In this document: positions 39,345-57,601 of the stretch, piece after piece
Layout of the letters: each line of letters begins with the position of its first letter
Numbering within the stretch: the first letter of the stretch is position 1
From: a virus
Lineage: Duplodnaviria; Caudoviricetes
Length of the DNA stretch: 61,459 bases
Virus record (IMG/VR): IMGVR_UViG_3300032299_000267
Location: 1 to 61,459 of that record
Direction: 5' to 3' (one strand)
Position numbers and translations under genes: made by a program
The notes under the pieces: generated by a model
Told to the model about the DNA's origin: nothing
The model's database searches: none
Seen by the model: the letters and a program-made list of their open reading frames with translations, nothing else

Positions 39345-40291
39345 TAGTACCCCTCTATCAATCTCAGTAAATCTTTAACTTCTTGGTTGCTATCAAACTG
39401 ATTAGCAGCGTCCGACCGGATGAATTCATCTATGGCTTCTAAATACTGGCAGTAACGCTCGTAACTCATACCTTTTAAGTAGGCATACAGCTCTGCATAG
39501 CTATCAAAATCCCGCATGTCTATAAAACATTCTTGTGGGATGTGGTCTGCTACGTTCGGCGCGCCCCAGTAAACAGGGACAATACCCGCCATGAATGCAT
39601 CCAGTATCTTTTCTGATATATATCCCACCGCGTTGTCGCAGTTCTCAAACGTCAGAGCAAATTTGTAGTTGCTGTAAGTTTTTAACTTGTGGTTGGATAC
39701 CCCTTTAGCCACCGGAAAAGACCGGATTTGCCAACCCCTACCCCACAAGTCAAAGTCAAACATCGCGTTCTCTTGGAACCACATGATGGCCTCTATCCGT
39801 TTCGGATATAAGCTGTGCGGCTGGTCGCTATTCTTTGCTGACTGCATCATGCACAGAAGTTTTCGACTATCAAAATCTGCCTCTGTCATGCCGCAAGAAA
39901 TACGATCAGTCCAGTCAACTGTAAAGTTGTGCTTTACATAGTTACCCCAGTTAACCAGATAGTCATTCCATGTAAGTATCTTGTCGAACCGATTGTGATA
40001 GGTGCTGTCCCAGTTGCCAGGCAAGATAGCTGGTGGCTCGTACAGAATAAGAATCTTCTCTGCATTCGGTACATCAAGATCAACCCGTGGCCTGTCCATA
40101 TAGATGACTAGGTCTACGGTAGACAGATCTACTTGGTCGGGCGTGTACAACTCTATGCCTATGGCTTTACACATCTTGTAAAGCTCAACCCACGGGCGCA
40201 GCAGGTTATGGCCTATATCACTGTTCTCATTCTTAAACAGGTAGCCATCTTCTGTGATGAACTCGTAATGGTTTTTAACTACTACCCGCAT
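39344..40291 (-). CDS. GT10 (alpha-1,3-fucosyltransferase-like) glycosyltransferase
   Basis: YKFALTFEN....GYISEKILDAF..GIVPVYWGA motif. Confidence 0.85.
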   Translation of the reverse strand: MRVVVKNHYEFITEDGYLFKNENSDIGHNLLRPWVELYKMCKAIGIELYTPDQVDLSTVDLVIYMDRPRVDLDVPNAEKILILYEPPAILPGNWDSTYHNRFDKILTWNDYLVNWGNYVKHNFTVDWTDRISCGMTEADFDSRKLLCMMQSAKNSDQPHSLYPKRIEAIMWFQENAMFDFDLWGRGWQIRSFPVAKGVSNHKLKTYSNYKFALTFENCDNAVGYISEKILDAFMAGIVPVYWGAPNVADHIPQECFIDMRDFDSYAELYAYLKGMSYERYCQYLEAIDEFIRSDAANQFDSNQEVKDLLRLIEGY

Positions 40292-40485
40292 CACTCTCCC
40301 CTTATTTTTGCTGCCGCTTCCGACAGCCCAAGTTTTTCACAAATAACTGCACATCTTTCCCGCTCTTGTCTCTCTATTACCTTTGCCAAGCTGCGCATCA
40401 AATCCCAAGCAGCGGAGTCTGGTGCATAGATAAGATCCAGTTCTTCTGCTGCTTTGTTTACCGCTTCAAATAACTTCCTGCTCAT
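40291..40485 (-). CDS. Small hypothetical protein
   Basis: ERERCAVICE...AAKIRGE; similar C-terminus to 46615-46785. Confidence 0.6.
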   Translation of the reverse strand: MSRKLFEAVNKAAEELDLIYAPDSAAWDLMRSLAKVIERQERERCAVICEKLGLSEAAAKIRGE

Positions 40486-42482: not shown

Positions 42483-43164
42483 CGAAAGATCCTTTGTATG
42501 TGCCAAATGTGGCAGTCAACTCTGGGTACGCCTCGCTATCACGCTGCTCGATGATCTTGTAAATGTTGGCGTTCGTGCGCCATACAGTCATCACATCATC
42601 CTTACTTTGGCACATATCAAGAGCGAAGATGGTCTGCTTTACTACAACGTGCAGCCAGTCATTCCAATCAGTACCAGGTTCAGACGAAACCTTGAGTTGC
42701 CATTGACTATCCGTTCGCCCTTCCATTTTCTTTGGTGGCGGAACTTCAACAGCTTTCGGCGTAGCTTTAGGTGGCGCTGCCTGCGGCGCAGTCTTTGTTG
42801 CTTGGTTACCATCGTCATCCTCCGTTGCGAGGGAGCAGGCGGCCATCAGCGAATACCTTCTTGCATAACTCAAAGCGCTCCCGAAGCCCTGCGCGTCCTG
42901 CTTAGTTGCTGGCATGAACAAACTGCCGCCTGACAGCTGCTCGCCAGATTCATGTATAAACACTGTAGATACTTTTACTCCGCCAGCATGTTCCTCAGTC
43001 AACTGCATAAGATAGATGCCGTTGTTGTTGAGAGCGTCAATGACCGCCTCGATACACGCAGACAGATCCGCATACTTGCTACGGAAGTGCGGGTTGGTGC
43101 TAGACTTCAGTGCTGGCCCAAACTCTCGCTGCGCTTTTACTAGCGCCGATGCTATTGCTTTCAT
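42469..43164 (-). CDS. ERF-family ssDNA-annealing recombinase
   Basis: NPHFRSKYADL, HESGE, QGFGSALSYARRYSL, EDDDG; AAGGAG RBS before ATG 43164. Confidence 0.9.
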   Translation of the reverse strand: MKAIASALVKAQREFGPALKSSTNPHFRSKYADLSACIEAVIDALNNNGIYLMQLTEEHAGGVKVSTVFIHESGEQLSGGSLFMPATKQDAQGFGSALSYARRYSLMAACSLATEDDDGNQATKTAPQAAPPKATPKAVEVPPPKKMEGRTDSQWQLKVSSEPGTDWNDWLHVVVKQTIFALDMCQSKDDVMTVWRTNANIYKIIEQRDSEAYPELTATFGTYKGSFDAKD

Positions 43165-44033
43165 GCCTTCTCCTTTAAATATTTCTGATACTGGCCACAG
43201 AAAGGCGCTGCCTGACAGAAGCTCTCGCATCGTGTCCTGCCGCCTTCTCTGGTTTCTATGTGGTGATCTGGGTATTTCGTTACTACAAAATTCTCTGCTT
43301 CCGACAGCGTGTTGCAAACCTTCTTAGCCCGAACACCGCCAGCTTTCATGATTGCGTAGGTAGTTGGCTTCTCCCACATTTCCTCCGGCGTACACTCTGG
43401 CATCATCCCGCTGACTGCTGCAAAGTTAGCCTCGTTGTGCAGAGTTAGCCGCTGCTTAACAAAAGCCTCGCGGTCTTCGTAGTCCCATAGAGGTATATCT
43501 AGTGTGACGATAGGTGACTGCGGGTAAGTTTCTTTCAGAGCTGCTTCTCTGCGCGACCAGTCACGCACGATGCCGATGATCTGTAGGCCAGCTACCTTGT
43601 CGCCCTTCACGCGTTCGACCAGCCATGCATACAGGTTTAACTGGTCTATCCACTCTTGCTTCTCTTGCTGGACAGTCCAGGCTGACGTCACCTTATAATC
43701 GGCAATAAGTACCTTGCCATCTACCAATGTTTGCAAATCTATGGCACCACTTATAGACCAACCCTCAAACGTAGTGAACAGACGTTCTTCTACTATGTGA
43801 TGGTCATCCTTGCCATGTTCCAAGATATTGTGGACAGCAGATCCGAACAGCGACCAGACCATGTCGCTAGCGTCTTGCTCGATATCTTCCTGATGTTGTC
43901 TGCGAAGTAGTACAAGTTGCGGAGGCGACAGTATTTCTGTTACGCTTATCTCACTGTTTCCCTTGCTGTAATGCGGCCTGCGAATGACGTTAACGAACGT
44001 CTCCGGTAAATTAAATTTGTTTGTTAATTTCAT
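43161..44033 (-). CDS. PD-(D/E)XK (Cas4/RecB-like) exonuclease
   Basis: GSAVH, EERL, SGAID, DYK, QLNLY and C-terminal Cys cluster (RCESFC...FC); paired with ERF. Confidence 0.85.
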   Translation of the reverse strand: MKLTNKFNLPETFVNVIRRPHYSKGNSEISVTEILSPPQLVLLRRQHQEDIEQDASDMVWSLFGSAVHNILEHGKDDHHIVEERLFTTFEGWSISGAIDLQTLVDGKVLIADYKVTSAWTVQQEKQEWIDQLNLYAWLVERVKGDKVAGLQIIGIVRDWSRREAALKETYPQSPIVTLDIPLWDYEDREAFVKQRLTLHNEANFAAVSGMMPECTPEEMWEKPTTYAIMKAGGVRAKKVCNTLSEAENFVVTKYPDHHIETREGGRTRCESFCQAAPFCGQYQKYLKEKA

Positions 44034-44056
44034 ACACCCTCCCTAGATGTAGACCG

Positions 44057-44085
44057 ATAGTAAACCTACATTTAGGGCAAGTCAA
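44057..44085 (-). promoter_or_regulatory. Sigma-70 promoter for the leftward recombination/sugar operon
   Basis: TTGACT-17-TACTAT on the - strand. Confidence 0.65.
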
Positions 44086-44124
44086 TAGTTATCACAAATA
44101 TTTTTTAACTGTTGTTAACAAATA

Positions 44125-44150
44125 GGTATCTGTAAATTCTTACAGATACC
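44125..44150. promoter_or_regulatory. 26-bp palindrome containing CTGT-N8-ACAG (copy 1)
   Basis: GGTATCTGTAA-ATTC-TTACAGATACC; identical to 57556-57581. Confidence 0.75.
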
Positions 44151-44162
44151 CGTTTGATAACA

Positions 44163-44191
44163 TTGCAAATAATAATTGGTAGTGTTATTGT
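44163..44191 (+). promoter_or_regulatory. Sigma-70 promoter for candidate sRNA
   Basis: TTGCAA-17-TATTGT with an extended -10 TG. Confidence 0.6.
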
Positions 44192-44196
44192 TACTG

Positions 44197-44311
44197 CGGG
44201 GAAAGCCTGCCACACTCTCCTGTGTTGTGATCTCCTTCCGGTAGGTGAGTACCCCTTGGATGTGGGTCTTAAGGGAAGACCCTTTGCCCCGCTTCGGCGG
44301 GGTTTTTTTTT
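44197..44311 (+). ncRNA. Candidate ~115-nt sRNA displaying anti-Shine-Dalgarno sequences
   Basis: Lies between a promoter and a terminator, with no credible ORF; stem 44205-11/44240-46 encloses CACTCTCCT and TGTGATCTCCTT. Confidence 0.55.
44285..44311 (+). terminator. Intrinsic terminator
   Basis: GCCCCGC-TTCG-GCGGGGT followed by a long T-run. Confidence 0.85.
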
Positions 44312-44378
44312 ACCTTTTGAAATCAAGAGGTAATATAATCATGTCAATGTAGTTTGTCTTCACTACCTTGAGATCATC

Positions 44379-45335
44379 ATGGCCATAACGGACGACGAGT
44401 TTATTGCTGCATGGAATCGAAACCCCAGCATTAAAGGGTGTTCTGAGCTTCTTGACATAAATGTTCGCAATATTGCTAGGCGGCGAAGATCAATAGAACA
44501 GAAACGTGGGATCATATTAAAAAGCGCAAGCATTAACAGTCCCGATTATTTAGTCACCATCCCGCACGATAACATTCGTGTTACTGCCGAAGTAGAAAAT
44601 GGTTCGATACTTGTTGCCAGTGATTGCCACTACTGGCCAAATATAATAAGCACCGCGCACAGAGCATTCGTTCTCTTTGTCAAAGAAATGAAGCCTAAGG
44701 CTATCGTATTAAACGGCGACGTTTTTGACGGAGCCAGCATCAGCAGGCACCCGCCAGGCGGCACATGGGAATCCATGCCATCGGTTAAGCAGGAACTAGA
44801 CGCCTGCAAAGAGCGTGTATCAGAGATAGAAGACGCCTCCCCCAATTCAAAGATGCATTACATTTGGGGTAACCACGACCTCCGATACAATGCGCGGCTC
44901 GCTGCCCAAGTAGGGGATGGATTTAAAGATATCCAAGGGATGAACCTTAAGGATCATTTCCCAAAGTGGATATTCTCTATGTCTCTCATGGTAAATGACA
45001 ACACCATGATTAAGCATCGTTATCATAATGGAATTCACGCTGTTCATAACAATTTAATAAAATCGGGGGTTAGCTTCGTCACAGGCCACCTTCACAGTTT
45101 GCGGGTAGTCCCGTGGACTAATTATTTGGGAACCTGTTATGGCGTCGATACAGGCTCACTGGCTGATGTTTGTGGCCAACAGTTCACGTACTCAGAAGAT
45201 AACCCAAAGAACCATAGAAGCGGATTTGCAGTGTTAACATTTTATAAAGGTAAGCTGCTTCCGCCGGAGCTTTGTGAGGTGCTGGACGAGGACGCTGGAA
45301 TTATATATTTTCGCGGAAACGTCTTTAAAGTGTAA
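44379..45335 (+). CDS. Calcineurin-like metallophosphoesterase
   Basis: SDCH, NGDVFD, GNHD, GHLH motifs. Confidence 0.85.
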   Translation: MAITDDEFIAAWNRNPSIKGCSELLDINVRNIARRRRSIEQKRGIILKSASINSPDYLVTIPHDNIRVTAEVENGSILVASDCHYWPNIISTAHRAFVLFVKEMKPKAIVLNGDVFDGASISRHPPGGTWESMPSVKQELDACKERVSEIEDASPNSKMHYIWGNHDLRYNARLAAQVGDGFKDIQGMNLKDHFPKWIFSMSLMVNDNTMIKHRYHNGIHAVHNNLIKSGVSFVTGHLHSLRVVPWTNYLGTCYGVDTGSLADVCGQQFTYSEDNPKNHRSGFAVLTFYKGKLLPPELCEVLDEDAGIIYFRGNVFKV

Positions 45336-46134: not shown

Positions 46135-46245
46135 TGTCACTGTGTCAGGCGGAGACAATCAACCCAAGCCCTTAAGCTTTGGTTCTTAGCCCTTAAGTGG
46201 GAACGTGCCTGACACACGGAGAACCAAGCCTTAAGGGTTTTTTCA
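46135..46245 (+). ncRNA. Structured leader with crossing complementarities (attenuator/pseudoknot candidate)
   Basis: 46141-50 pairs with 46207-16; 46166-86 pairs with 46220-40; followed by a T-run. Confidence 0.55.
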
Positions 46246-46562
46246 TTTGCAGTGACCGTACCTTCCACGATAGTAGAGAGCCTGCATGGGCTGCCGGAGA
46301 GAATACACTGGTCGAGGTTTCACCTGCCTGCGTACCACACTGCCTGTTAGCGAGGGACAGTACAAGAGAAGAGAGACATGGGTGATAGACAACTCTCTTA
46401 TCGAGCTAATCGCTACCTTCTGGGTTTGCCAGTATTCAGCAGTAAGAATATGGGCAAGGATGATTCCCCATCTCGTGTGCTGCGCATTTGATGGTGGGCT
46501 ATCACCCTTGGGGAACCTAAACACGGAGGATGCAATAGATGTGAGTTGGCAGGAACTAACTG

Positions 46563-46591
46563 TTGACACGTATAAGATTACATATTATTGT
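46563..46591 (+). promoter_or_regulatory. Sigma-70 promoter upstream of the RAMP operon
   Basis: TTGACA-17-TATTGT, then GGAGG RBS and ATG 46615. Confidence 0.65.
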
Positions 46592-46614
46592 TCGCCCTAG
46601 ATATAGGAGGTCAC

Positions 46615-46785
46615 ATGAAAGAAGGAGAGTGGATTAAGGATCATCTGCGGGAGTTTGCAGATCGTTTGGAGCAGTCGGTGATAGAGCGGGAAAGAGAAAG
46701 AGCGGCAATCATTTGCCACTACTACAGAGATTGGCAGGATAACCCTGCTGAAGCCATAGCTACGGCTATATTAAAAGGAGAGTGA
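46615..46785 (+). CDS. Small hypothetical protein
   Basis: GGAGG RBS; ERERAAIIC...AIATAILKGE. Confidence 0.65.
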   Translation: MKEGEWIKDHLREFADRLEQSVIERERERAAIICHYYRDWQDNPAEAIATAILKGE

Positions 46786-46787
46786 AG

Positions 46788-47453
46788 ATGGATATGAAAG
46801 TCAAAGAAACATCAGTAGTTATTTCTGCACCCAATTTCCAGGCAGTCGATGTTCTGCTACAGGGTACAGCGCCGCTAGTCGTTGAGCGGTTTAGCAAGAA
46901 GGCAGAACTAATGGCTAAGATGGCAGAGGGTAAGTCTGCCGGTAGCAAGAAGGTTCGTGATGCCCGCGACTATGACAAAGAAGCAGAGGCCGCACGTTAC
47001 CGCTCAGAAGAAAACTGGGAAGGCATGAACGCTGCTGCTTTCCGCGCCGGTATGATCAGCGCATGTCGCTTAGTAGGTTTTAAGATGACGCTCGCCAAGC
47101 TATCAACATTTGTTGTGGCTGACGGCTTTGATCTCCAAGATGGCATACCGCTTATCCGTATCTATGGCACTAGCGAAACCTATACAGCTCACACACGCAA
47201 CGCTACGGGCGTGGTTGATGTCCGTAGCCGTCCCATGTACCGTGAGTGGGCGGCACGTTTGCGTATACGTTTTGATTCGGATCAGTTCACAGCACAAGAT
47301 GTCTACAACTTAGTCAGCCGCGTTGGGTTGCAGGTAGGTATAGGTGCAGGACGTCCTGACTCTAAGGCTTCCGCTGGCTGTGGTTTTGGTACGTTTGAAA
47401 TTGTGCCCAACGACAAAGAGAAAGAAGTCGTAAAGAAATTCGGCATTAAGTAA
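46788..47453 (+). CDS. Stand-alone RAMP-superfamily (Cas7/Csm3-like) protein; putative effector of the adjacent GGY-NN array (VIPR-like)
   Basis: N-terminal strand VLLQGTAPL, GMNAAAFRAGMISA helix, RPMYREW...IRFD, and C-terminal glycine-rich loop GLQVGIGAGRP...GCGFGTF. AAGGAG RBS; alternative GTG start at 46782. Confidence 0.75.
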   Translation: MDMKVKETSVVISAPNFQAVDVLLQGTAPLVVERFSKKAELMAKMAEGKSAGSKKVRDARDYDKEAEAARYRSEENWEGMNAAAFRAGMISACRLVGFKMTLAKLSTFVVADGFDLQDGIPLIRIYGTSETYTAHTRNATGVVDVRSRPMYREWAARLRIRFDSDQFTAQDVYNLVSRVGLQVGIGAGRPDSKASAGCGFGTFEIVPNDKEKEVVKKFGIK

Positions 47454-47457
47454 TTAA

Positions 47458-47970
47458 GGCAGGCCCGTCGTGGTGAGTTGCGATCCGGCCCGGTTGGGCA
47501 AGGCAGGCTAGGTTGGGCGCGGCATGGTAGTGCGAGGTGGGGCGAGGTTTGGTTTGGCAAAGCAGGTCAGGCGAGGTTTGTTGGGGTATGTTGCGTTGCT
47601 GCGCGGCTTGGTTCGTTAAGGCAGGCAAGTTCCGGCTGGGCGGGGCACGGTGCGGTTCGTTTCGGCAGGTAGGGTGGGGAGAGGCGAGTTCCGGTAAGGT
47701 AGGTTAGGTGTGGCGGGGCAGGCACGGTATGGCTGGGCGGCGTGTGTTCTGGCATGGTTTGGTATGGCAGGCATGGCACAGTGGGGAGAGTCCAGGCGGG
47801 GCAGCGTGCGGTAAGGTTCGATACGGCAGGTAAGGCGAGGCGAGTTCGGGTAAAGCGAGGTTTGGAAAGGCAGGCGGGGTTAGGCGGCGCAAGGTGGAGT
47901 TAGGAGTGGTGCGGTGAGGCAGGTGAGGCGGGGCGGGGTTTGGTCGGGCACGGTAAGACATGGCAGGTAA
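47458..47970 (+). repeat. Non-coding GGY-NN pentamer array punctuated by GGCA tetramers (~10 units; putative guide-RNA array)
   Basis: Parses completely into 93 pentamers and 12 tetramers (513 bp). Delimiters at 47458, 47502, 47561 (AGCA), 47620, 47664, 47717, 47766, 47825, 47869, 47918, 47962, plus GGTA at 47698. Confidence 0.9.
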
Positions 47971-47987
47971 ACTTTAAGGAGATCAAC

Positions 47988-48470
47988 ATGGAAGTAATGA
48001 AAGCAGAAGCACTAGCAGAAGAACGCAAGCTATTAGAAAAGATTGCCAATAAAAATGGCGGCTTGTTGATGGTTGATGATGTACTGGATGAAGCTAGAAA
48101 TCCTAAGTCAATCCTCCACAAACATTTCCAGTGGGATGATGACAAGGCCGCAGAAGCTTATCGCAAGATGCAGGCACGGCAGCTTATCCAGAAGTGCGTA
48201 GTCACAATTGAGAAAGCGCCAGACGTTCCTATTCGTGCGTTTGTAAGTCTATCTACCGACCAGTACGAGGGCGGTGGCTATCGCATGACGGCTAATGTTC
48301 TTTCAGATGATCAACAGAAAGGTCAGTTACTACACGATATGCACCTCACATTATTGAGGTGGAAGAAGCAAGTGAATTTGTTGGACACAGAGACAGAAGA
48401 AATCCTTAACCGATTGGAGCAACTTATCACTCGCCGCGTAAGTGATCGTCGTGATGGGGCTAGGCCATGA
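47988..48470 (+). CDS. Partner protein downstream of the array, unknown function
   Basis: AAGGAG RBS before ATG 47988; VLDEARNPKSILHKHFQWDDDKAAEAYRKMQARQLI. Confidence 0.75.
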   Translation: MEVMKAEALAEERKLLEKIANKNGGLLMVDDVLDEARNPKSILHKHFQWDDDKAAEAYRKMQARQLIQKCVVTIEKAPDVPIRAFVSLSTDQYEGGGYRMTANVLSDDQQKGQLLHDMHLTLLRWKKQVNLLDTETEEILNRLEQLITRRVSDRRDGARP

Positions 48471-54382: not shown

Positions 54383-54393
54383 CGTCTGATCTC

Positions 54394-54579
54394 CTATAAA
54401 GATTGTGCCCACAACATTTGTATGACTAGCATTTCTGTCATGTTTTCTACTTCTTCTTGTATCCATTCGTCTGAATATCCCTCGAATGGTTCCCATGCGG
54501 TAAGGTCGTCAACGTCTGCGTAAAAGTGCATAGTGGCTATTGCATGAGCGCGCTGTTTAATTTCATCTAATGTTTTCAT
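54394..54579 (-). CDS. Small early protein
   Basis: MKTLDEIK...; flanked by repeat modules. Confidence 0.7.
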   Translation of the reverse strand: MKTLDEIKQRAHAIATMHFYADVDDLTAWEPFEGYSDEWIQEEVENMTEMLVIQMLWAQSL

Positions 54580-54590
54580 CGTCTGATCTC

Positions 54591-54761
54591 CTATGCGTTG
54601 ACTACTAACTGCATCCATTTACCCTCTACTGGTAAATCGAAATCCTCTTTTTCATCGAATGTAAAAACGTCAAAATCATCTCCATCTGTCCATCCCCATG
54701 CGTTTGTCCAAAGTAATTCTGGTTTATTTACGTTTTCAATTACATAAGCGTCTAATATCAT
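54591..54761 (-). CDS. Small early protein (56 aa, below cutoff)
   Basis: MILDAYVIEN...LWTNAWGW...LPVEGKW; flanked by repeat modules. Confidence 0.7.
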   Translation of the reverse strand: MILDAYVIENVNKPELLWTNAWGWTDGDDFDVFTFDEKEDFDLPVEGKWMQLVVNA

Positions 54762-54772
54762 CGTCTGATCTC

Positions 54773-54955
54773 CTATATGTTGGCTAAGTGTTTTGCTTTA
54801 ACGACTGCCTGCGCGAGCGTCTGAAAGCGCATTAACAGGCATACGCGCTCGTCTGCATCTGTATCAAACAGCGCGACATTAAAACCTTTGTCCGTCTGAT
54901 AAATGCGTGATTCGATACCGTAATTCTCGTTTGGATAAGCTGCTATTTGTTGCAT
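54773..54955 (-). CDS. Small early protein
   Basis: 60 aa; flanked by repeat modules. Confidence 0.7.
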   Translation of the reverse strand: MQQIAAYPNENYGIESRIYQTDKGFNVALFDTDADERVCLLMRFQTLAQAVVKAKHLANI

Positions 54956-54967
54956 CGTCTGATCTCC

Positions 54968-55135
54968 TTATTGTTGGCACTCTGCACAAACCGCTCGCAT
55001 TTCGGGGTTCTCTCGTACCCATCTCAGCGCGGCGGCTTTCGTATCAAATCTCTGCCAGATGAAATAACCGCCTTGTCCATCTGCGACCATCTCAAAGCAT
55101 TTAATCCAACCGTACTCATTAAATTTAAGTTTCAT
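54968..55135 (-). CDS. Small early protein (55 aa, below cutoff)
   Basis: MKLKFNEYGW...; flanked by repeat modules. Confidence 0.65.
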   Translation of the reverse strand: MKLKFNEYGWIKCFEMVADGQGGYFIWQRFDTKAAALRWVRENPEMRAVCAECQQ

Positions 55136-55218
55136 CGTCTGATCTCCTGTATGTATTAGTTAATCACGCTCACAACTATTGCATTGTCAAGCGTGACCCA
55201 GTTAATTGTCAAGTGTTT

Positions 55219-55518
55219 TTAATTAAGTTCTAAAGCGTGTTGCTGCGGGTTTAATAAATGATTTGTGAAATACAGTCTGCATGTATAGCAGTCCGCATGT
55301 AATCCGCTAACTTGGTCAACTGCGAATTGTGTTTCCTGCCTGCCATAATATGCGTCTGTAAAATCAAGCGTTGCGTTTGGCAACTTCCAGTAGTCGCGCA
55401 TGAAGGCGTTGAGGTCGGCGGCTTCGCGGTCGTCAAGTCCAGAATAGTCACCGACGAAAAGCGCGGGTAAATAGTGCGCGGCAAGTGTCAATTCGTGATA
55501 GTCGTTAAGTAATGGCAT
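55219..55518 (-). CDS. Early hypothetical protein
   Basis: AGGAG RBS; LPALFVGDYSGLDDRE. Confidence 0.7.
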   Translation of the reverse strand: MPLLNDYHELTLAAHYLPALFVGDYSGLDDREAADLNAFMRDYWKLPNATLDFTDAYYGRQETQFAVDQVSGLHADCYTCRLYFTNHLLNPQQHALELN

Positions 55519-55521
55519 GGT

Positions 55522-55722
55522 TTAAACTCCTGCTAGGTGCGCGAAGCTGCGCGGGGTTGATTGTTCGATTTGGATTGAATAACCCAGAGCGGCGATAGTG
55601 TCGAGCGCGTGTCTAGTCAGCGTCTTAGTCCCTGCCAGTTTTGCCAGTAAGCGGCTCTGGTCACAACTAGGGTATGCAGTCTCGATACCATAATTTTTTT
55701 CGATGCGGATAGTTATTTTCAT
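55522..55722 (-). CDS. Early hypothetical protein
   Basis: KNYG...YP.C...LAKLAGTKTLT...LGY. Confidence 0.7.
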   Translation of the reverse strand: MKITIRIEKNYGIETAYPSCDQSRLLAKLAGTKTLTRHALDTIAALGYSIQIEQSTPRSFAHLAGV

Positions 55723-55733
55723 TTTATTAACCC

Positions 55734-56066
55734 TTAAAATTGAACGTAAACAATAGTGCCTGAATTTGTAGTGCCAATAACTGTCGTTTCATCCTGTAAA
55801 TAATTCATAACAGTTTCGACAGTAGTAACTTCGTCAATACACTCTGATATGTCGATGCTGTAATTTGCAGCTATATCCTCGCAATAATTTTCAGATAATT
55901 CGCAGCAAAGGGCGATCACGTCGAGTTCATACTCCTCACCTAAATCGCGCTCTTGATCTTCCAAGTAATCGAATATCAGTTCGAGCGCTTCGTAACTGAA
56001 CTGATCTTCCCTGCCAGCGCGCACAAAAGCATCGCGGAAGCCATAAATGGATATAGTTGTTTTCAT
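55734..56066 (-). CDS. Acidic early protein
   Basis: FSYEAL..IFDYL...ELDVIALCCE; AGGAGATCACATC RBS module. Confidence 0.7.
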   Translation of the reverse strand: MKTTISIYGFRDAFVRAGREDQFSYEALELIFDYLEDQERDLGEEYELDVIALCCELSENYCEDIAANYSIDISECIDEVTTVETVMNYLQDETTVIGTTNSGTIVYVQF

Positions 56067-56237
56067 GATGTGATCTCCTAATTAGATTGATAAAAGCAAA
56101 AACAAAAACAGCCAAAAAATAAAGAATCCGGCTATGCCTGCCAGTATTTCGTTAACCATTGTCACTCCCCTAAAAGTGGTTTGATTATCGAGTGATAATC
56201 CGCTAGCAGACTGAAACAATCCACTAGCAGGTGTCAC

Positions 56238-56402
56238 TCAATAACTAAATTCATCTTCTAGGCTAGTGATTAACCCGTCGAAGTCCTCAGAGCTACCGAG
56301 TATTGATGCAAGCGCGTAAACAGTCTCGCGGTCGTATTCCTCGCAAAGGCTCTCAAGGTATGCGCGGCGGTTCTCAAATCCGTTTTCTTTGTAAATGTTC
56401 AT
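56238..56402 (-). CDS. Small early protein (54 aa, below cutoff)
   Basis: MNIYKENGFENRRAYLESL...LGSSEDFDGLITSLED; AAGGAGATCACAGC RBS. Confidence 0.7.
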   Translation of the reverse strand: MNIYKENGFENRRAYLESLCEEYDRETVYALASILGSSEDFDGLITSLEDEFSY

Positions 56403-56414
56403 GCTGTGATCTCC

Positions 56415-56603
56415 TTAGATAATGAAAGCGGGATGGTTAGCTATGCCAAAGATAGGCGCGTATTCCAGTAAAGCGGCGCGGCTTTTCTTAGTCATTGCAG
56501 CGCGAATAAGGCTAGATAAGGCTTGAGCTATGTTTTGCTCGTATCCGCCTAGCTTGTGCATGATGCAAAGATTCTGTATTTCTCGCAGTTCTGATTTATT
56601 CAT
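56415..56603 (-). CDS. Small early protein
   Basis: 62 aa; AGGAGATCACATC RBS. Confidence 0.7.
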   Translation of the reverse strand: MNKSELREIQNLCIMHKLGGYEQNIAQALSSLIRAAMTKKSRAALLEYAPIFGIANHPAFII

Positions 56604-56652
56604 GATGTGATCTCCTGAGTTAATGCACTAATGAATGAAGTGCATGAGTGAT

Positions 56653-56813: not shown

Positions 56814-57545
56814 ATGAAAACAATCAGTAGGAAACAGGCAAGGGAAGCTATACAGACTAAAGGGCTAGAAGGTGCGCTTCACTTAGGGAAAACAAACCTA
56901 ACAGCCAAACAGAGACGCTTTGCAGAGGGGATAGTATTAGAGGGTCTTACTGGTGCGGATGCTTACCGGCAGGCATATGACACAAAGGGCAGACCGCAAA
57001 TCGCAGGTGTTGAAGCACATAAGCTTAAGACTAACCCTAAGGTTGCCAATGTGATGGAAGCACTAGAGCGGGCGAAAGAGGCGAGCGCATCGCATTCCGC
57101 CGAATCTTTGAGGGCATTGTGCGTTAGTACGTTGGTTGACGTTGCCACCAACTCGGATCGTGATGCTGTGCGCGTTGCTGCGGTTCGTGTACTTGGTTCG
57201 GTTGTAGGCGTTGATGCGTATCGGGAGACTAAGCGCATAGAGACTGTCAAAGATAGCGACGAGATAAAGCAGCAAATCATGGCGCAACTCAAAGGGATGA
57301 TGCTAGGTACTGACGACGCCGTTACAGTTGACGCCACAGATCTGCTCGCCGAGCTTGCCGGTGACGCAAATCAGCCATGCTTAGACCCCACCGCACCCCC
57401 ACCATGCCAATCTGACAACGGGACTCCGGCTGACTCTATACATACTATTCCACTCGAACAGTCCGGTGATTTTTCAGAAGACCCCCCCTTACCTTTAGAT
57501 TCATCCACCCCCCAGGGGGATATATTTTTGGAAAAAGGAAAATAG
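56814..57545 (+). CDS. terS: Terminase small subunit
   Basis: LTAKQRRFAE...ADAYRQAY...L.TNPKV; upstream of terL. Confidence 0.8.
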   Translation: MKTISRKQAREAIQTKGLEGALHLGKTNLTAKQRRFAEGIVLEGLTGADAYRQAYDTKGRPQIAGVEAHKLKTNPKVANVMEALERAKEASASHSAESLRALCVSTLVDVATNSDRDAVRVAAVRVLGSVVGVDAYRETKRIETVKDSDEIKQQIMAQLKGMMLGTDDAVTVDATDLLAELAGDANQPCLDPTAPPPCQSDNGTPADSIHTIPLEQSGDFSEDPPLPLDSSTPQGDIFLEKGK

Positions 57546-57555
57546 TTATCAAACG

Positions 57556-57581
57556 GGTATCTGTAAATTCTTACAGATACC
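57556..57581. promoter_or_regulatory. 26-bp palindrome containing CTGT-N8-ACAG (copy 2)
   Basis: Identical to 44125-44150; 20 bp upstream of the LexA-like gene. Confidence 0.75.
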
Positions 57582-57601
57582 CTGTTGACAACATTTACAA
57601 A

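Follow-up and report, generated by a model that had tools for sequence, protein, structure and literature searches.

A covarying small RNA family of tailed phages with two loops complementary to phage ribosome-binding sites

In phage lambda, the pR'-6S RNA-tR' unit produces a short transcript from a constitutive promoter and ends it at a strong terminator just upstream of a gene block. The small RNA (sRNA) RsaE/RoxS of Firmicutes carries a repeated pyrimidine-rich motif, with one of the two copies placed in a hairpin loop; these copies bind the G-rich Shine-Dalgarno (SD) regions of several mRNAs and keep the initiation complex from forming (PMC6158497). The c4 RNA of phages P1 and P7 is structured and trans-acting, and its loops pair around the ribosome-binding site (RBS) of a phage mRNA and block translation (PMC12197685). 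In phage T4, the endoribonuclease RegB and the translational repressor RegA bring about a post-transcriptional shut-off at the SDs of many early mRNAs, and the strong sites of RegB share GGAGRAYARAA, a sequence running past the SD (PMC3014915). Here we describe a candidate sRNA locus in IMG/VR record IMGVR_UViG_3300032299_000267 (Caudoviricetes), a virus record that is complete at 61459 bp and has direct terminal repeats, which was analysed over its whole length and is called the window below. A first-pass annotation had proposed that positions 44163-44311 encode a trans-acting sRNA antisense to the phage's own repeated RBSs; on re-reading the sequence, all of its motifs, coordinates and complementarities proved correct.

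In mode of action, the closest match to the candidate is RsaE/RoxS, whose duplicated C-rich motifs correspond to two UCUCCU motifs here. However, RsaE is a chromosomal metabolism regulator of Gram-positive bacteria, whereas the present RNA is phage-encoded, carries UCUCCU motifs and has phage genes as candidate targets, and the two are related neither in sequence nor in structure (no Rfam match). With c4 the candidate shares that it is a phage-encoded structured RNA whose loops would face phage RBSs. The c4 RNA controls a single antirepressor operon of temperate phages, whereas the sRNA described here is delimited by a promoter and a terminator of its own, and its candidate targets are many and scattered. 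Moreover, c4 is reportedly processed from the very transcript that it regulates. The extended RegB site of T4 finds a parallel in the extended AGGAGAUCAGACG modules of the early genes discussed below, but RegB and RegA are proteins, while the candidate effector here is an RNA. The lambda cassette differs in that our locus has no conserved link to the downstream operon, which has a separate promoter, and no Q-like gene was identified. Judged by these features, the candidate would represent a new family of base-pairing sRNAs, placed in a new setting and working by a mechanism of known type. Neither this family nor any phage sRNA whose anti-SD loops target RBSs of the same phage was found in the part of the published literature that we compared; the supplementary tables of one review, which list 38 uncharacterised phage sRNAs, lie outside this comparison, and the phage sRNA examples quoted in the available part of that review come from temperate phages and prophages (PMC12197685). 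The phage studied here is without lysogeny genes among those annotated in the window.

The elements of the locus are the following.

44163 to 44191, + strand: promoter, with -35 TTGCAA (44163-68), a 17-nucleotide (nt) spacer and an extended -10, TGTTATTGT (44183-91)
44197 to 44311, + strand: predicted sRNA of ~113-116 nt, with the transcription start inferred at 44197-99 and the 3' end in the T-run 44303-11
44198 to 44255, + strand: hairpin 1, in which P1 joins GGGG (44198-201) to CCCC (44252-55) and P2 joins 44205-11 to 44240-46
44213 to 44221, + strand: motif 1 (anti-SD), CACUCUCCU (DNA CACTCTCCT), core UCUCCU predicted unpaired
44226 to 44237, + strand: motif 2 (anti-SD), UGUGAUCUCCUU (DNA TGTGATCTCCTT), with a UCUCCU core
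44264 to 44282, + strand: hairpin 2, GGGUCUU, loop AAGGG, AAGACCC
44286 to 44311, + strand: intrinsic terminator, stem 44286-92/44297-303, loop TTCG, nine T

The promoter reported by the first-pass annotation as TTGCAA-17-TATTGT is present, with TATTGT at 44186-91, and the TG at -15/-14 makes it one of the extended -10 type. Our promoter scanner did not list it because it matches the consensus at 8 of 12 positions, the scanner's threshold being 9. The terminator, previously called strong, has a 7-pair stem with six G-C pairs, followed by nine T ending at 44311. The stem noted earlier is P2, in which GCCTGCC (44205-11) faces GGTAGGT (44240-46) over 7 bp including two G-U. Hairpin 1 also has a conserved internal loop, AAA versus GAGUA, which looks like a loop E (bulged-G) motif, and an apical region of 28 nt that holds both anti-SD motifs. 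The reported lack of a credible open reading frame (ORF) holds as well: the longest one from start to stop spans at most 24 amino acids (aa) and is not conserved. Given that the minimum free energy of the single sequence has a z-score of only -1.69, the case for a structure rests on covariation and not on folding energy.

Relatives of the sRNA had to be reached by several routes. The exact 29-nt pattern had no copy in viral contigs, and the two-motif pattern had five matches, two of which (L086 and L089 in our working labels for relatives) are chance matches inside coding sequence. Of 80 loci reached via the downstream phosphoesterase gene, a single one carried the sRNA, already with compensatory changes in two of its stems, while searches via the upstream exonuclease gene together with motif patterns gave copies in 9 viral and 16 metagenome contigs. 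A covariance model built from 15 sequences was then run against 98 sources (573755 nt) and returned 29 strong matches (E < 1e-10), exactly one of them in the window (117 bits, E 5.7e-30). In the resulting family alignment of 26 distinct sequences, fitted to the model in a way that itself favours structure, 97.1% of the structure cells pair versus 81.1% in shuffles (0 of 500 shuffles reach the observed value), and 17 of 25 pairs have changed on both sides versus 9.2 in shuffles. When the partners are slid by 1-3 columns as a control, pairing is only 39-55%. Compensatory pairs are found in P2 (6 of 9), hairpin 2 (6 of 6) and the terminator (5 of 7) and are missing from the short P1; the cells that pair amount to 99.6% in P2 and 100% in the terminator. 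An independent analysis of 11 sequences with MAFFT and RNAalifold recovered P2 and the terminator with compensatory changes.

The signals that delimit the RNA are conserved along with its fold. All 26 members have an extended -10-like element, TGnTA[TG][TCA]GT, at a constant distance upstream of the 5' GGGAAAG and within 24 nt of it, and 12 of them a -35 with at least four of six consensus matches; at the other end, the three-hairpin fold closes in the model alignment with the terminator hairpin and then a T-run. GGGAAAG and GAGUACC are near-invariant across the family. No ORF is conserved on either strand among the 26 members, the frame shifting from one member to the next. The sRNA is kept whatever adjoins it downstream, be it the phosphoesterase operon or other non-coding elements, which argues for an autonomous unit. 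Conservation of promoter, fold and terminator in 26 relatives supports the reading of the locus as a separate non-coding transcription unit on the + strand, and that it is a new family of structured small RNA is the conclusion in which we have high confidence. No Rfam family reached its gathering score at the sRNA or elsewhere in the window or in 12 relatives, further Rfam scans giving sub-threshold matches only, and the 23 Rfam matches obtained on 43900-44500 at E up to 10 do not include the C4 antisense RNA family. Among the sub-threshold matches, the best one, GcvB (RF00022), was rejected: it scores 26.9 bits against a gathering score of 42 and aligns only the hairpin upstream of the promoter and the terminator. 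As the family stands, 26 distinct sequences and the covariation suffice for an Rfam submission.

Within this fold, the stems vary through compensatory changes while the loop cores stay constant. Motif 1, CACUCUCCU, is found in 25 of the 26 members and the second UCUCCU core in all 26, with the flank of motif 2 reading GUGAUCUCCU (GUGA) in 16, GUGGUCUCCU (GUGG) in 4 and another variant in 6. Partition-function folding gives the cores a median unpaired probability of 0.87 (motif 1) and 0.83 (motif 2). The candidate targets that face these loops are listed here.

46776 to 46790, + strand: RBS AGGAGAGUGAAG and ATG of the Cas7-like gene 46788-47453
46604 to 46631, + strand: start region of the small gene 46615-46785
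54383 to 56616, - strand: eight early-gene RBS modules AGGAGAUCA[C/G]A
47976 to 47990, + strand: RBS AAGGAGAUCA and ATG of gene 47988-48470
40289 to 40303, - strand: RBS GGGGAGAGUG and ATG of a 315-aa gene (40291)

Pairing of the sRNA with the operon of the small gene and the Cas7-like gene (the RAMP gene of the first-pass annotation) would be the best-supported interaction. Motif 1, CACTCTCCT at 44213-21 in the DNA, is indeed complementary to AGGAGAGTG at 46776-84, the RBS of the RAMP gene, whose true start is the ATG at 46788 and not the GTG inside AGGAGAGTG. It is also complementary to 46623-31, inside codons 3-5 of the small gene; in this start region, AGGAGGUCACA can pair with motif 2 over 11 bp including one G-U, and AGGAGAGUG in codons 3-5 with motif 1. 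An RBS of type AGGAGAGUGA precedes the Cas7-like gene wherever its cassette is present (the window, labelled G000, and G002, G005, G006, G010, L189 and L196), and where the cassette is absent (G007, G008, G009 and L205) the same type of RBS stands on the adjoining small gene. Motif 1 matches the RBS of the Cas7-like gene over 13 nt in G005 and L196, 12 in G006 and G010, 11 in G002, 10 in L189 and 9 in the window, and that of the small gene over 11-13 nt in G007, G008, G009 and L205. Loop and RBS differ together between two clades at the same position, UUCAC with GUGAA versus AUCAC with GUGAU (UUCACUCUCC with GGAGAGUGAA versus AUCACUCUCC with GGAGAGUGAU). G004 alone among the genomes has another motif 1 (CACCUUCCUCCUGU), and its variant loop UUCCUCCUGU fits a likewise variant RBS of the small gene, ACAGGAGGAA, over 10 nt; shuffled loops give matches of at least 10 nt at 0.09 start regions among the 45 of that genome. 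Counting the variant pairs, a motif 1 that fits the RBS of either the Cas7-like or the small gene is present in 9 of the 11 fetched genomes, and three further contigs have one as well.

Motif 2 faces a different class of genes. As had been claimed, TGTGATCTCCTT at 44226-37 is the exact reverse complement of the - strand at 56405-16 (12/12) and matches over 11 nt at 56069-79 and 56606-16. The 9-10 nt given for five further modules are made up of 9 nt at 54387, 54584, 54766 and 55140 and 10 nt at 54960 (54960-69), and AAGGAGATCA at 47976-85 is the RBS of the partner gene, which starts at 47988. The eight - strand sites are RBSs, lying 5-6 nt before an ATG or GTG that opens an ORF of 54-110 aa, and the modules are near-identical, AGGAGATCA[C/G]A[C/T][C/G](A/G)TG. 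Three are of the CAC type, with 11-12 nt of complementarity (56616, 56416 and 56079), and five of the CAG type, with 9-10 nt. Both runs of small genes with these RBS modules are headed by one of two near-identical early promoters on the - strand, AAAAACACTTGACA followed by a -10 (~56690-56640 and 55220-55175). AGGAGATCA is strongly enriched in every relative (1-15 copies, the reversed control giving 0), and genomes that hold the early region have AGGAGAUCAC-type start regions with matches of 10-16 nt, for instance at position 1093 of G006 (16 nt including one G-U). The CAC-type modules (AGGAGAUCACA) match over 10-12 nt, or up to 16-17 with G-U, in the window, G005, G006, G007 and G008. For these modules, shut-off of early genes by the sRNA is plausible and is not backed by covariation. 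In one clade (clade e), the loop GUGAAUCUCCUC has a perfect 12-nt partner, GAGGAGAUUCAC, in the RBS of a 256-aa glycosyltransferase-like gene (G002, G010 and G011); this covariation is real in the three genomes, but the orthologues in other clades lack the partner, so that we regard it as lineage-specific or due to chance.

Beyond these two groups, the 315-aa gene at 40291 is the top ortholog group in a ranking of duplexes (mean -28.1 kcal/mol, 5 genomes), with the Cas7-like gene and the small gene also near the top. When accessibility is taken into account in the window, 40291, 56402 and 46615 come first and six early genes are among the best 14 of 146, in a ranking that uses unrestricted duplexfold and is crude, no substitute for IntaRNA. 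The specificity of the loops was assessed by keeping both CTCC cores fixed, shuffling the other loop positions and counting Watson-Crick matches of at least 9 nt at predicted start regions. In the window, 7 of 106 start regions match versus a mean of 0.79, and in G005 and G006 there are 8 and 14 versus 0.44 and 0.84, with 0 of 1000 shuffles reaching the observed number in each of the three; the effect is weaker in G001, G002, G004, G007 and G010. Chance alone would yield 0.47 copies of a 9-mer on the two strands (2 x 61459 nt). Because the early modules repeat one motif, however, the independent matches number about two or three per genome and not seven in the window.

The observed anatomy, conservation, covariation of the fold and complementarity are consistent with the following mechanism, for which transcription, pairing in vivo and repression rather than activation are what we infer. 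A non-coding RNA of ~115 nt would be independently transcribed from 44197 to 44311 (+ strand) and stop at the intrinsic terminator. The apex of hairpin 1 in this three-hairpin RNA would expose two UCUCCU anti-SD elements, which would pair in trans with the RBSs of a subset of the phage's own mRNAs, blocking binding of the 30S subunit and perhaps triggering mRNA cleavage. The best reading of the two seeds is that they differ in the specificity of their flanks. One subset of targets, with the extended SD AGGAGAGUG(A), would then comprise the Cas7-like gene 46788, the small gene 46615 and the 315-aa gene 40291, and the other, with the extended SD AGGAGAUCA(C), the early small genes at 54.4-56.6 kb and gene 47988. 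We put the probability of this trans-acting anti-RBS mechanism at roughly 0.5. A tentative extension, in which we place rather less trust, is that the sRNA is a temporal switch, an RNA-only counterpart of T4 RegA/RegB that closes the early RBSs and gates the Cas7-like accessory cassette; the sRNA would accumulate from its host-type promoter, and the RBS 'dialects' would be the addresses that it reads. Less likely is the further idea that the Cas7-like protein takes the sRNA or the neighbouring structured RNAs as a guide.

Several observations weigh against trans-acting pairing with phage RBSs. Any CUCCU loop complements any SD, so that specificity hangs on 3-6 flank bases, and it is these bases that would fold back on each other: CAC of motif 1 and GUGA of motif 2 are predicted to pair together (median unpaired probability 0.12 and 0.07). 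Such a mini-stem, which would put motif 1 in a small hairpin loop and motif 2 just 3' of it, could explain the conservation of the flanks without any target. Among the early modules, the type most common in relatives is CAG (AGGAGATCAGACGATG; AGGAGAUCAGACG), which is complementary over only 9 nt, and the invariant spacer GACGATG falls outside the pairing. The AGGAGATCAG modules are unchanged where the loop differs, in L093/G004 (GGUCUCCU) and L101/G010 (GAAUCUCCUC): G004 has 11 AGGAGATCA sites despite its loop, and G010 has three, with 7 nt of complementarity left. As for motif 1, the small gene has no extended match in G001 (a complete genome) or G003, and the Cas7-like gene was not found by tblastn in G001 or the G003 fragment. 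The window and L189 have a mismatch at the very position that covaries elsewhere. Finally, variant loops occur in a small number of clades (the L093, L194/L199 and L100-102 types) whose members are close to one another, and each covariation thus amounts to one or two evolutionary events.

The claims of the first-pass annotation about function fare accordingly unevenly. Its proposal that one sRNA could shut off the early genes and the RAMP locus together finds partial support in its second half, in that motif 1 and the RAMP-gene RBS track each other across clades, whereas the CAG-type early modules offer 9 nt and do not covary. Covariation of loop and RBS in relatives, which it had named as a check, is seen for motif 1 (the pairs in G002, G010 and G004), whereas in G004 and G010 motif 2 and the CAG-type modules do not show it. 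Nor do the data bear out its idea that the sRNA accounts for the identity of those RBSs, as the invariant part of the module outreaches the pairing and persists where the loop differs. The precedent of the extended RegB site in T4 suggests instead that the invariant spacer of the early modules may be read by a protein rather than by the sRNA.

Among other explanations of the locus, it is unlikely, but deserves weight, that the structured RNA binds or titrates a protein or joins a ribonucleoprotein, with GGGAAAG/GAGUACC and the pyrimidine loops as a recognition surface and the RBS complementarity as a by-product of CU-rich loops. The internal mini-stem would account for the flank bases, the early modules do not covary with the loop, and further structured RNAs without an explanation abound in the window and its relatives; besides, the base of hairpin 1 recurs as a scaffold with unrelated inserts in distant relatives, which suggests a function of its own. 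Yet no candidate protein is known, the Cas7-like gene is missing from G001, which keeps the sRNA, and such binding predicts neither the flank matches to the phage's own RBS classes nor the paired differences of loop and RBS in G002, G010 and G004. The same flank matches and covariation, being with phage RBSs, speak against a trans-acting sRNA aimed at host mRNAs in a take-over of the host instead of at phage genes. We consider this improbable, even though anti-SD loops would pair with many host SDs and phage-derived sRNAs can regulate both their own and host genes according to a review (PMC12197685).

Alternatively, the locus may be a cis-acting cassette similar to lambda pR'-6S RNA-tR', in which the RNA is a by-product or an antitermination or attenuation element and regulated readthrough of 44286-44311 turns on the genes from 44379 onward. 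The arrangement of a promoter, a short RNA and a strong terminator directly upstream of a gene block in the same orientation invites this comparison, as do the poor -35 of the operon's own promoter in the window and the scaffold motif found at mRNA 5' ends in distant relatives. It seems to us quite improbable nonetheless: the downstream context varies, with other non-coding modules in place of this operon in L091, L094, L096, L099 and L102; the -10 of the operon, GGTAATATAAT, is kept in L008 and L010, where there is no sRNA upstream; the terminator stem covaries as a simple hairpin, although no search was made for an alternative antiterminator pairing with its 5' arm; and the two conserved anti-SD loops would be left unexplained. 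Least credible by far is a non-functional relic, an inverted RBS module or - strand mini-gene that came to lie beside a fortuitous terminator. It is true that the - strand reads AAGGAGATCACA...AGGAGAGTG, resembling two RBS modules, and that a 32-aa - strand ORF starts at 44213, but the - strand ORFs have no common frame, start or sequence among relatives and 16 of the 26 members lack them, compensatory changes occur in four helices, and promoter and terminator are both conserved on the + strand. A gene reading of the - strand was rejected on the same grounds, its ORFs not being conserved among the 26 members.

The Cas7-like gene (46788-47453, + strand) encodes a protein of 221 aa with 5021 homologues, all unnamed, the 120 listed being each at least 78% identical to it. 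The protein belongs to no Pfam family, its sole PHROG match is phrog_4652, a group without known function, and neither the ESM Atlas nor the homologue search gave it a name. For its AlphaFold2 (AF2) model (pLDDT 77.8), all matches listed by Foldseek are chains from CRISPR effector complexes, either of type III (Csm, Cmr), of type VII or of Cas7-11 (best E 1.7e-5; TM 0.39-0.47), and VIA-align gives Z 8.3 at a root-mean-square deviation of 3.4 A over 147-152 residues, a Z near the tool's stated background of 7-8. With moderate confidence, the model points to a Csm3/Cas7-like RAMP fold, which makes the label chosen by the first-pass annotation a reasonable one. The gene lies in an accessory cassette that only some relatives have, and since G001 lacks the cassette and keeps the sRNA, the sRNA does not depend on it.

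The sRNA locus occupies a divergent intergenic region between gene blocks of the - and the + strand, with the following neighbours.

43161 to 44033, - strand: PD-(D/E)XK-type exonuclease, first gene of the - strand operon beside the sRNA
44124 to 44151, no strand assigned: 12-bp hairpin just upstream of the sRNA promoter, part of a duplicated hairpin-plus-promoter cassette
44331 to 44339, + strand: -10 region, GGTAATATAAT, of the separate promoter of the downstream operon, which starts at 44379
44379 to 45335, + strand: metallophosphoesterase, first gene of the + strand block beside the sRNA

The promoter of the downstream operon has a poor -35 in the window; its GGTAATATAAT is kept in L005, L197, L198 and L200, besides the two relatives without an upstream sRNA named above. 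The 12-bp hairpin keeps its structure in relatives but not its sequence. The cassette to which it belongs occurs at 44113-44170 and 57542-57600 (88% identity over 51 nt) and consists of the hairpin, TTGAYAACATT and a promoter-like sequence; the second copy has the small-terminase gene on one side and the large-terminase gene on the other. The -10 of the - strand exonuclease promoter is flanked by an inverted repeat resembling an operator, CCCTAAATGTAG / CTACATCTAGGG (44040-44085), which is strongly conserved among relatives, and a related half-site, CCCTAGATATAGG (46590-46612), precedes the small gene 46615. A search of the window and 12 relatives for tRNA and tmRNA returned none. The window has no DNA relative among GenBank phages in near and distant search modes, and by large terminase (TerL) its nearest cultured relatives are the Pelagibacter phages HTVC027P and HTVC023P and phage DSL-LC04, with 51-58% identity. 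Twenty sequencing runs are listed as holding parts of the phage, none of them recorded as RNA, which speaks neither for nor against expression; the DNA runs are labelled freshwater or aquatic metagenomes, in shares too small to give a firm habitat.

The base of hairpin 1 has counterparts beyond the family. In distant relatives (L150, L155, L161, L162, L167 and others), the RBS of the next gene is preceded at 10-20 nt by a scaffold of the form GGGGAAAGCGGAUGCUG-(variable hairpin)-CAGCGAGUACCCC, which lies at most ~10 nt downstream of a sigma-70-like promoter in L161, L162 and L167 and has no promoter seen upstream in L150 and L155; its apical inserts are unrelated. This recurrence at 5' ends suggests that the base of hairpin 1 belongs to a wider 5'-terminal RNA module. 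Weak matches to the covariance model (E 0.001-0.02) occur at L133:1952-2040, L167:1523-1615, L124:84-192 and L162:1997-2090 (- strand). In each of them a small hairpin and then a terminator come after a U(C)UCUCCU motif, and they may be analogous anti-SD RNAs of more distant phages. Downstream of the sRNA, L091, L094, L096, L099 and L102 have 1-4 tandem non-coding modules, absent from the window, of the form AAGACGCAUGA(GG/CC)AUUG ... CAGU(CC/GG)UCAGCCGUGUUGG ... CCAACAACC, with covarying stems and variable inserts; some hold a second GGGAAAGC...GAGUACC scaffold, and those of the five contigs had no Rfam or tRNA match.

Two further non-coding stretches adjoin the Cas7-like operon. Between a terminator (~46215-46245) and the promoter of the small gene 46615, ~300 nt at 46250-46570 (+ strand) are 74-86% identical in 10 of 10 fetched relatives. 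RNAalifold predicts 68 pairs for this stretch from 10 sequences, 24 of them with compensatory changes, and Rfam has no match; it is probably a second, larger structured RNA, and the ORF listed at 46286-46600 is unlikely to be a gene. The other stretch, 521 nt at 47455-47975 (+ strand), separates the Cas7-like gene from gene 47988 and has no credible ORFs; it contains 47% G, with GGCAGG or AGCAGG every 44-59 nt (11 occurrences), and may represent an origin, a set of iterons in array or an RNA of repetitive sequence.

The locus marks a genome region dense in unassigned structured RNAs beside a phage Cas7-like gene. If the anti-RBS mechanism is true, the sRNA would be a compact, portable translational repressor, and it would provide a concrete and testable case of RNA-based control of the gene programme in a widespread ~60 kb freshwater phage group, whose TerL is about 55% identical to that of Pelagibacter phages, its nearest cultured relatives.

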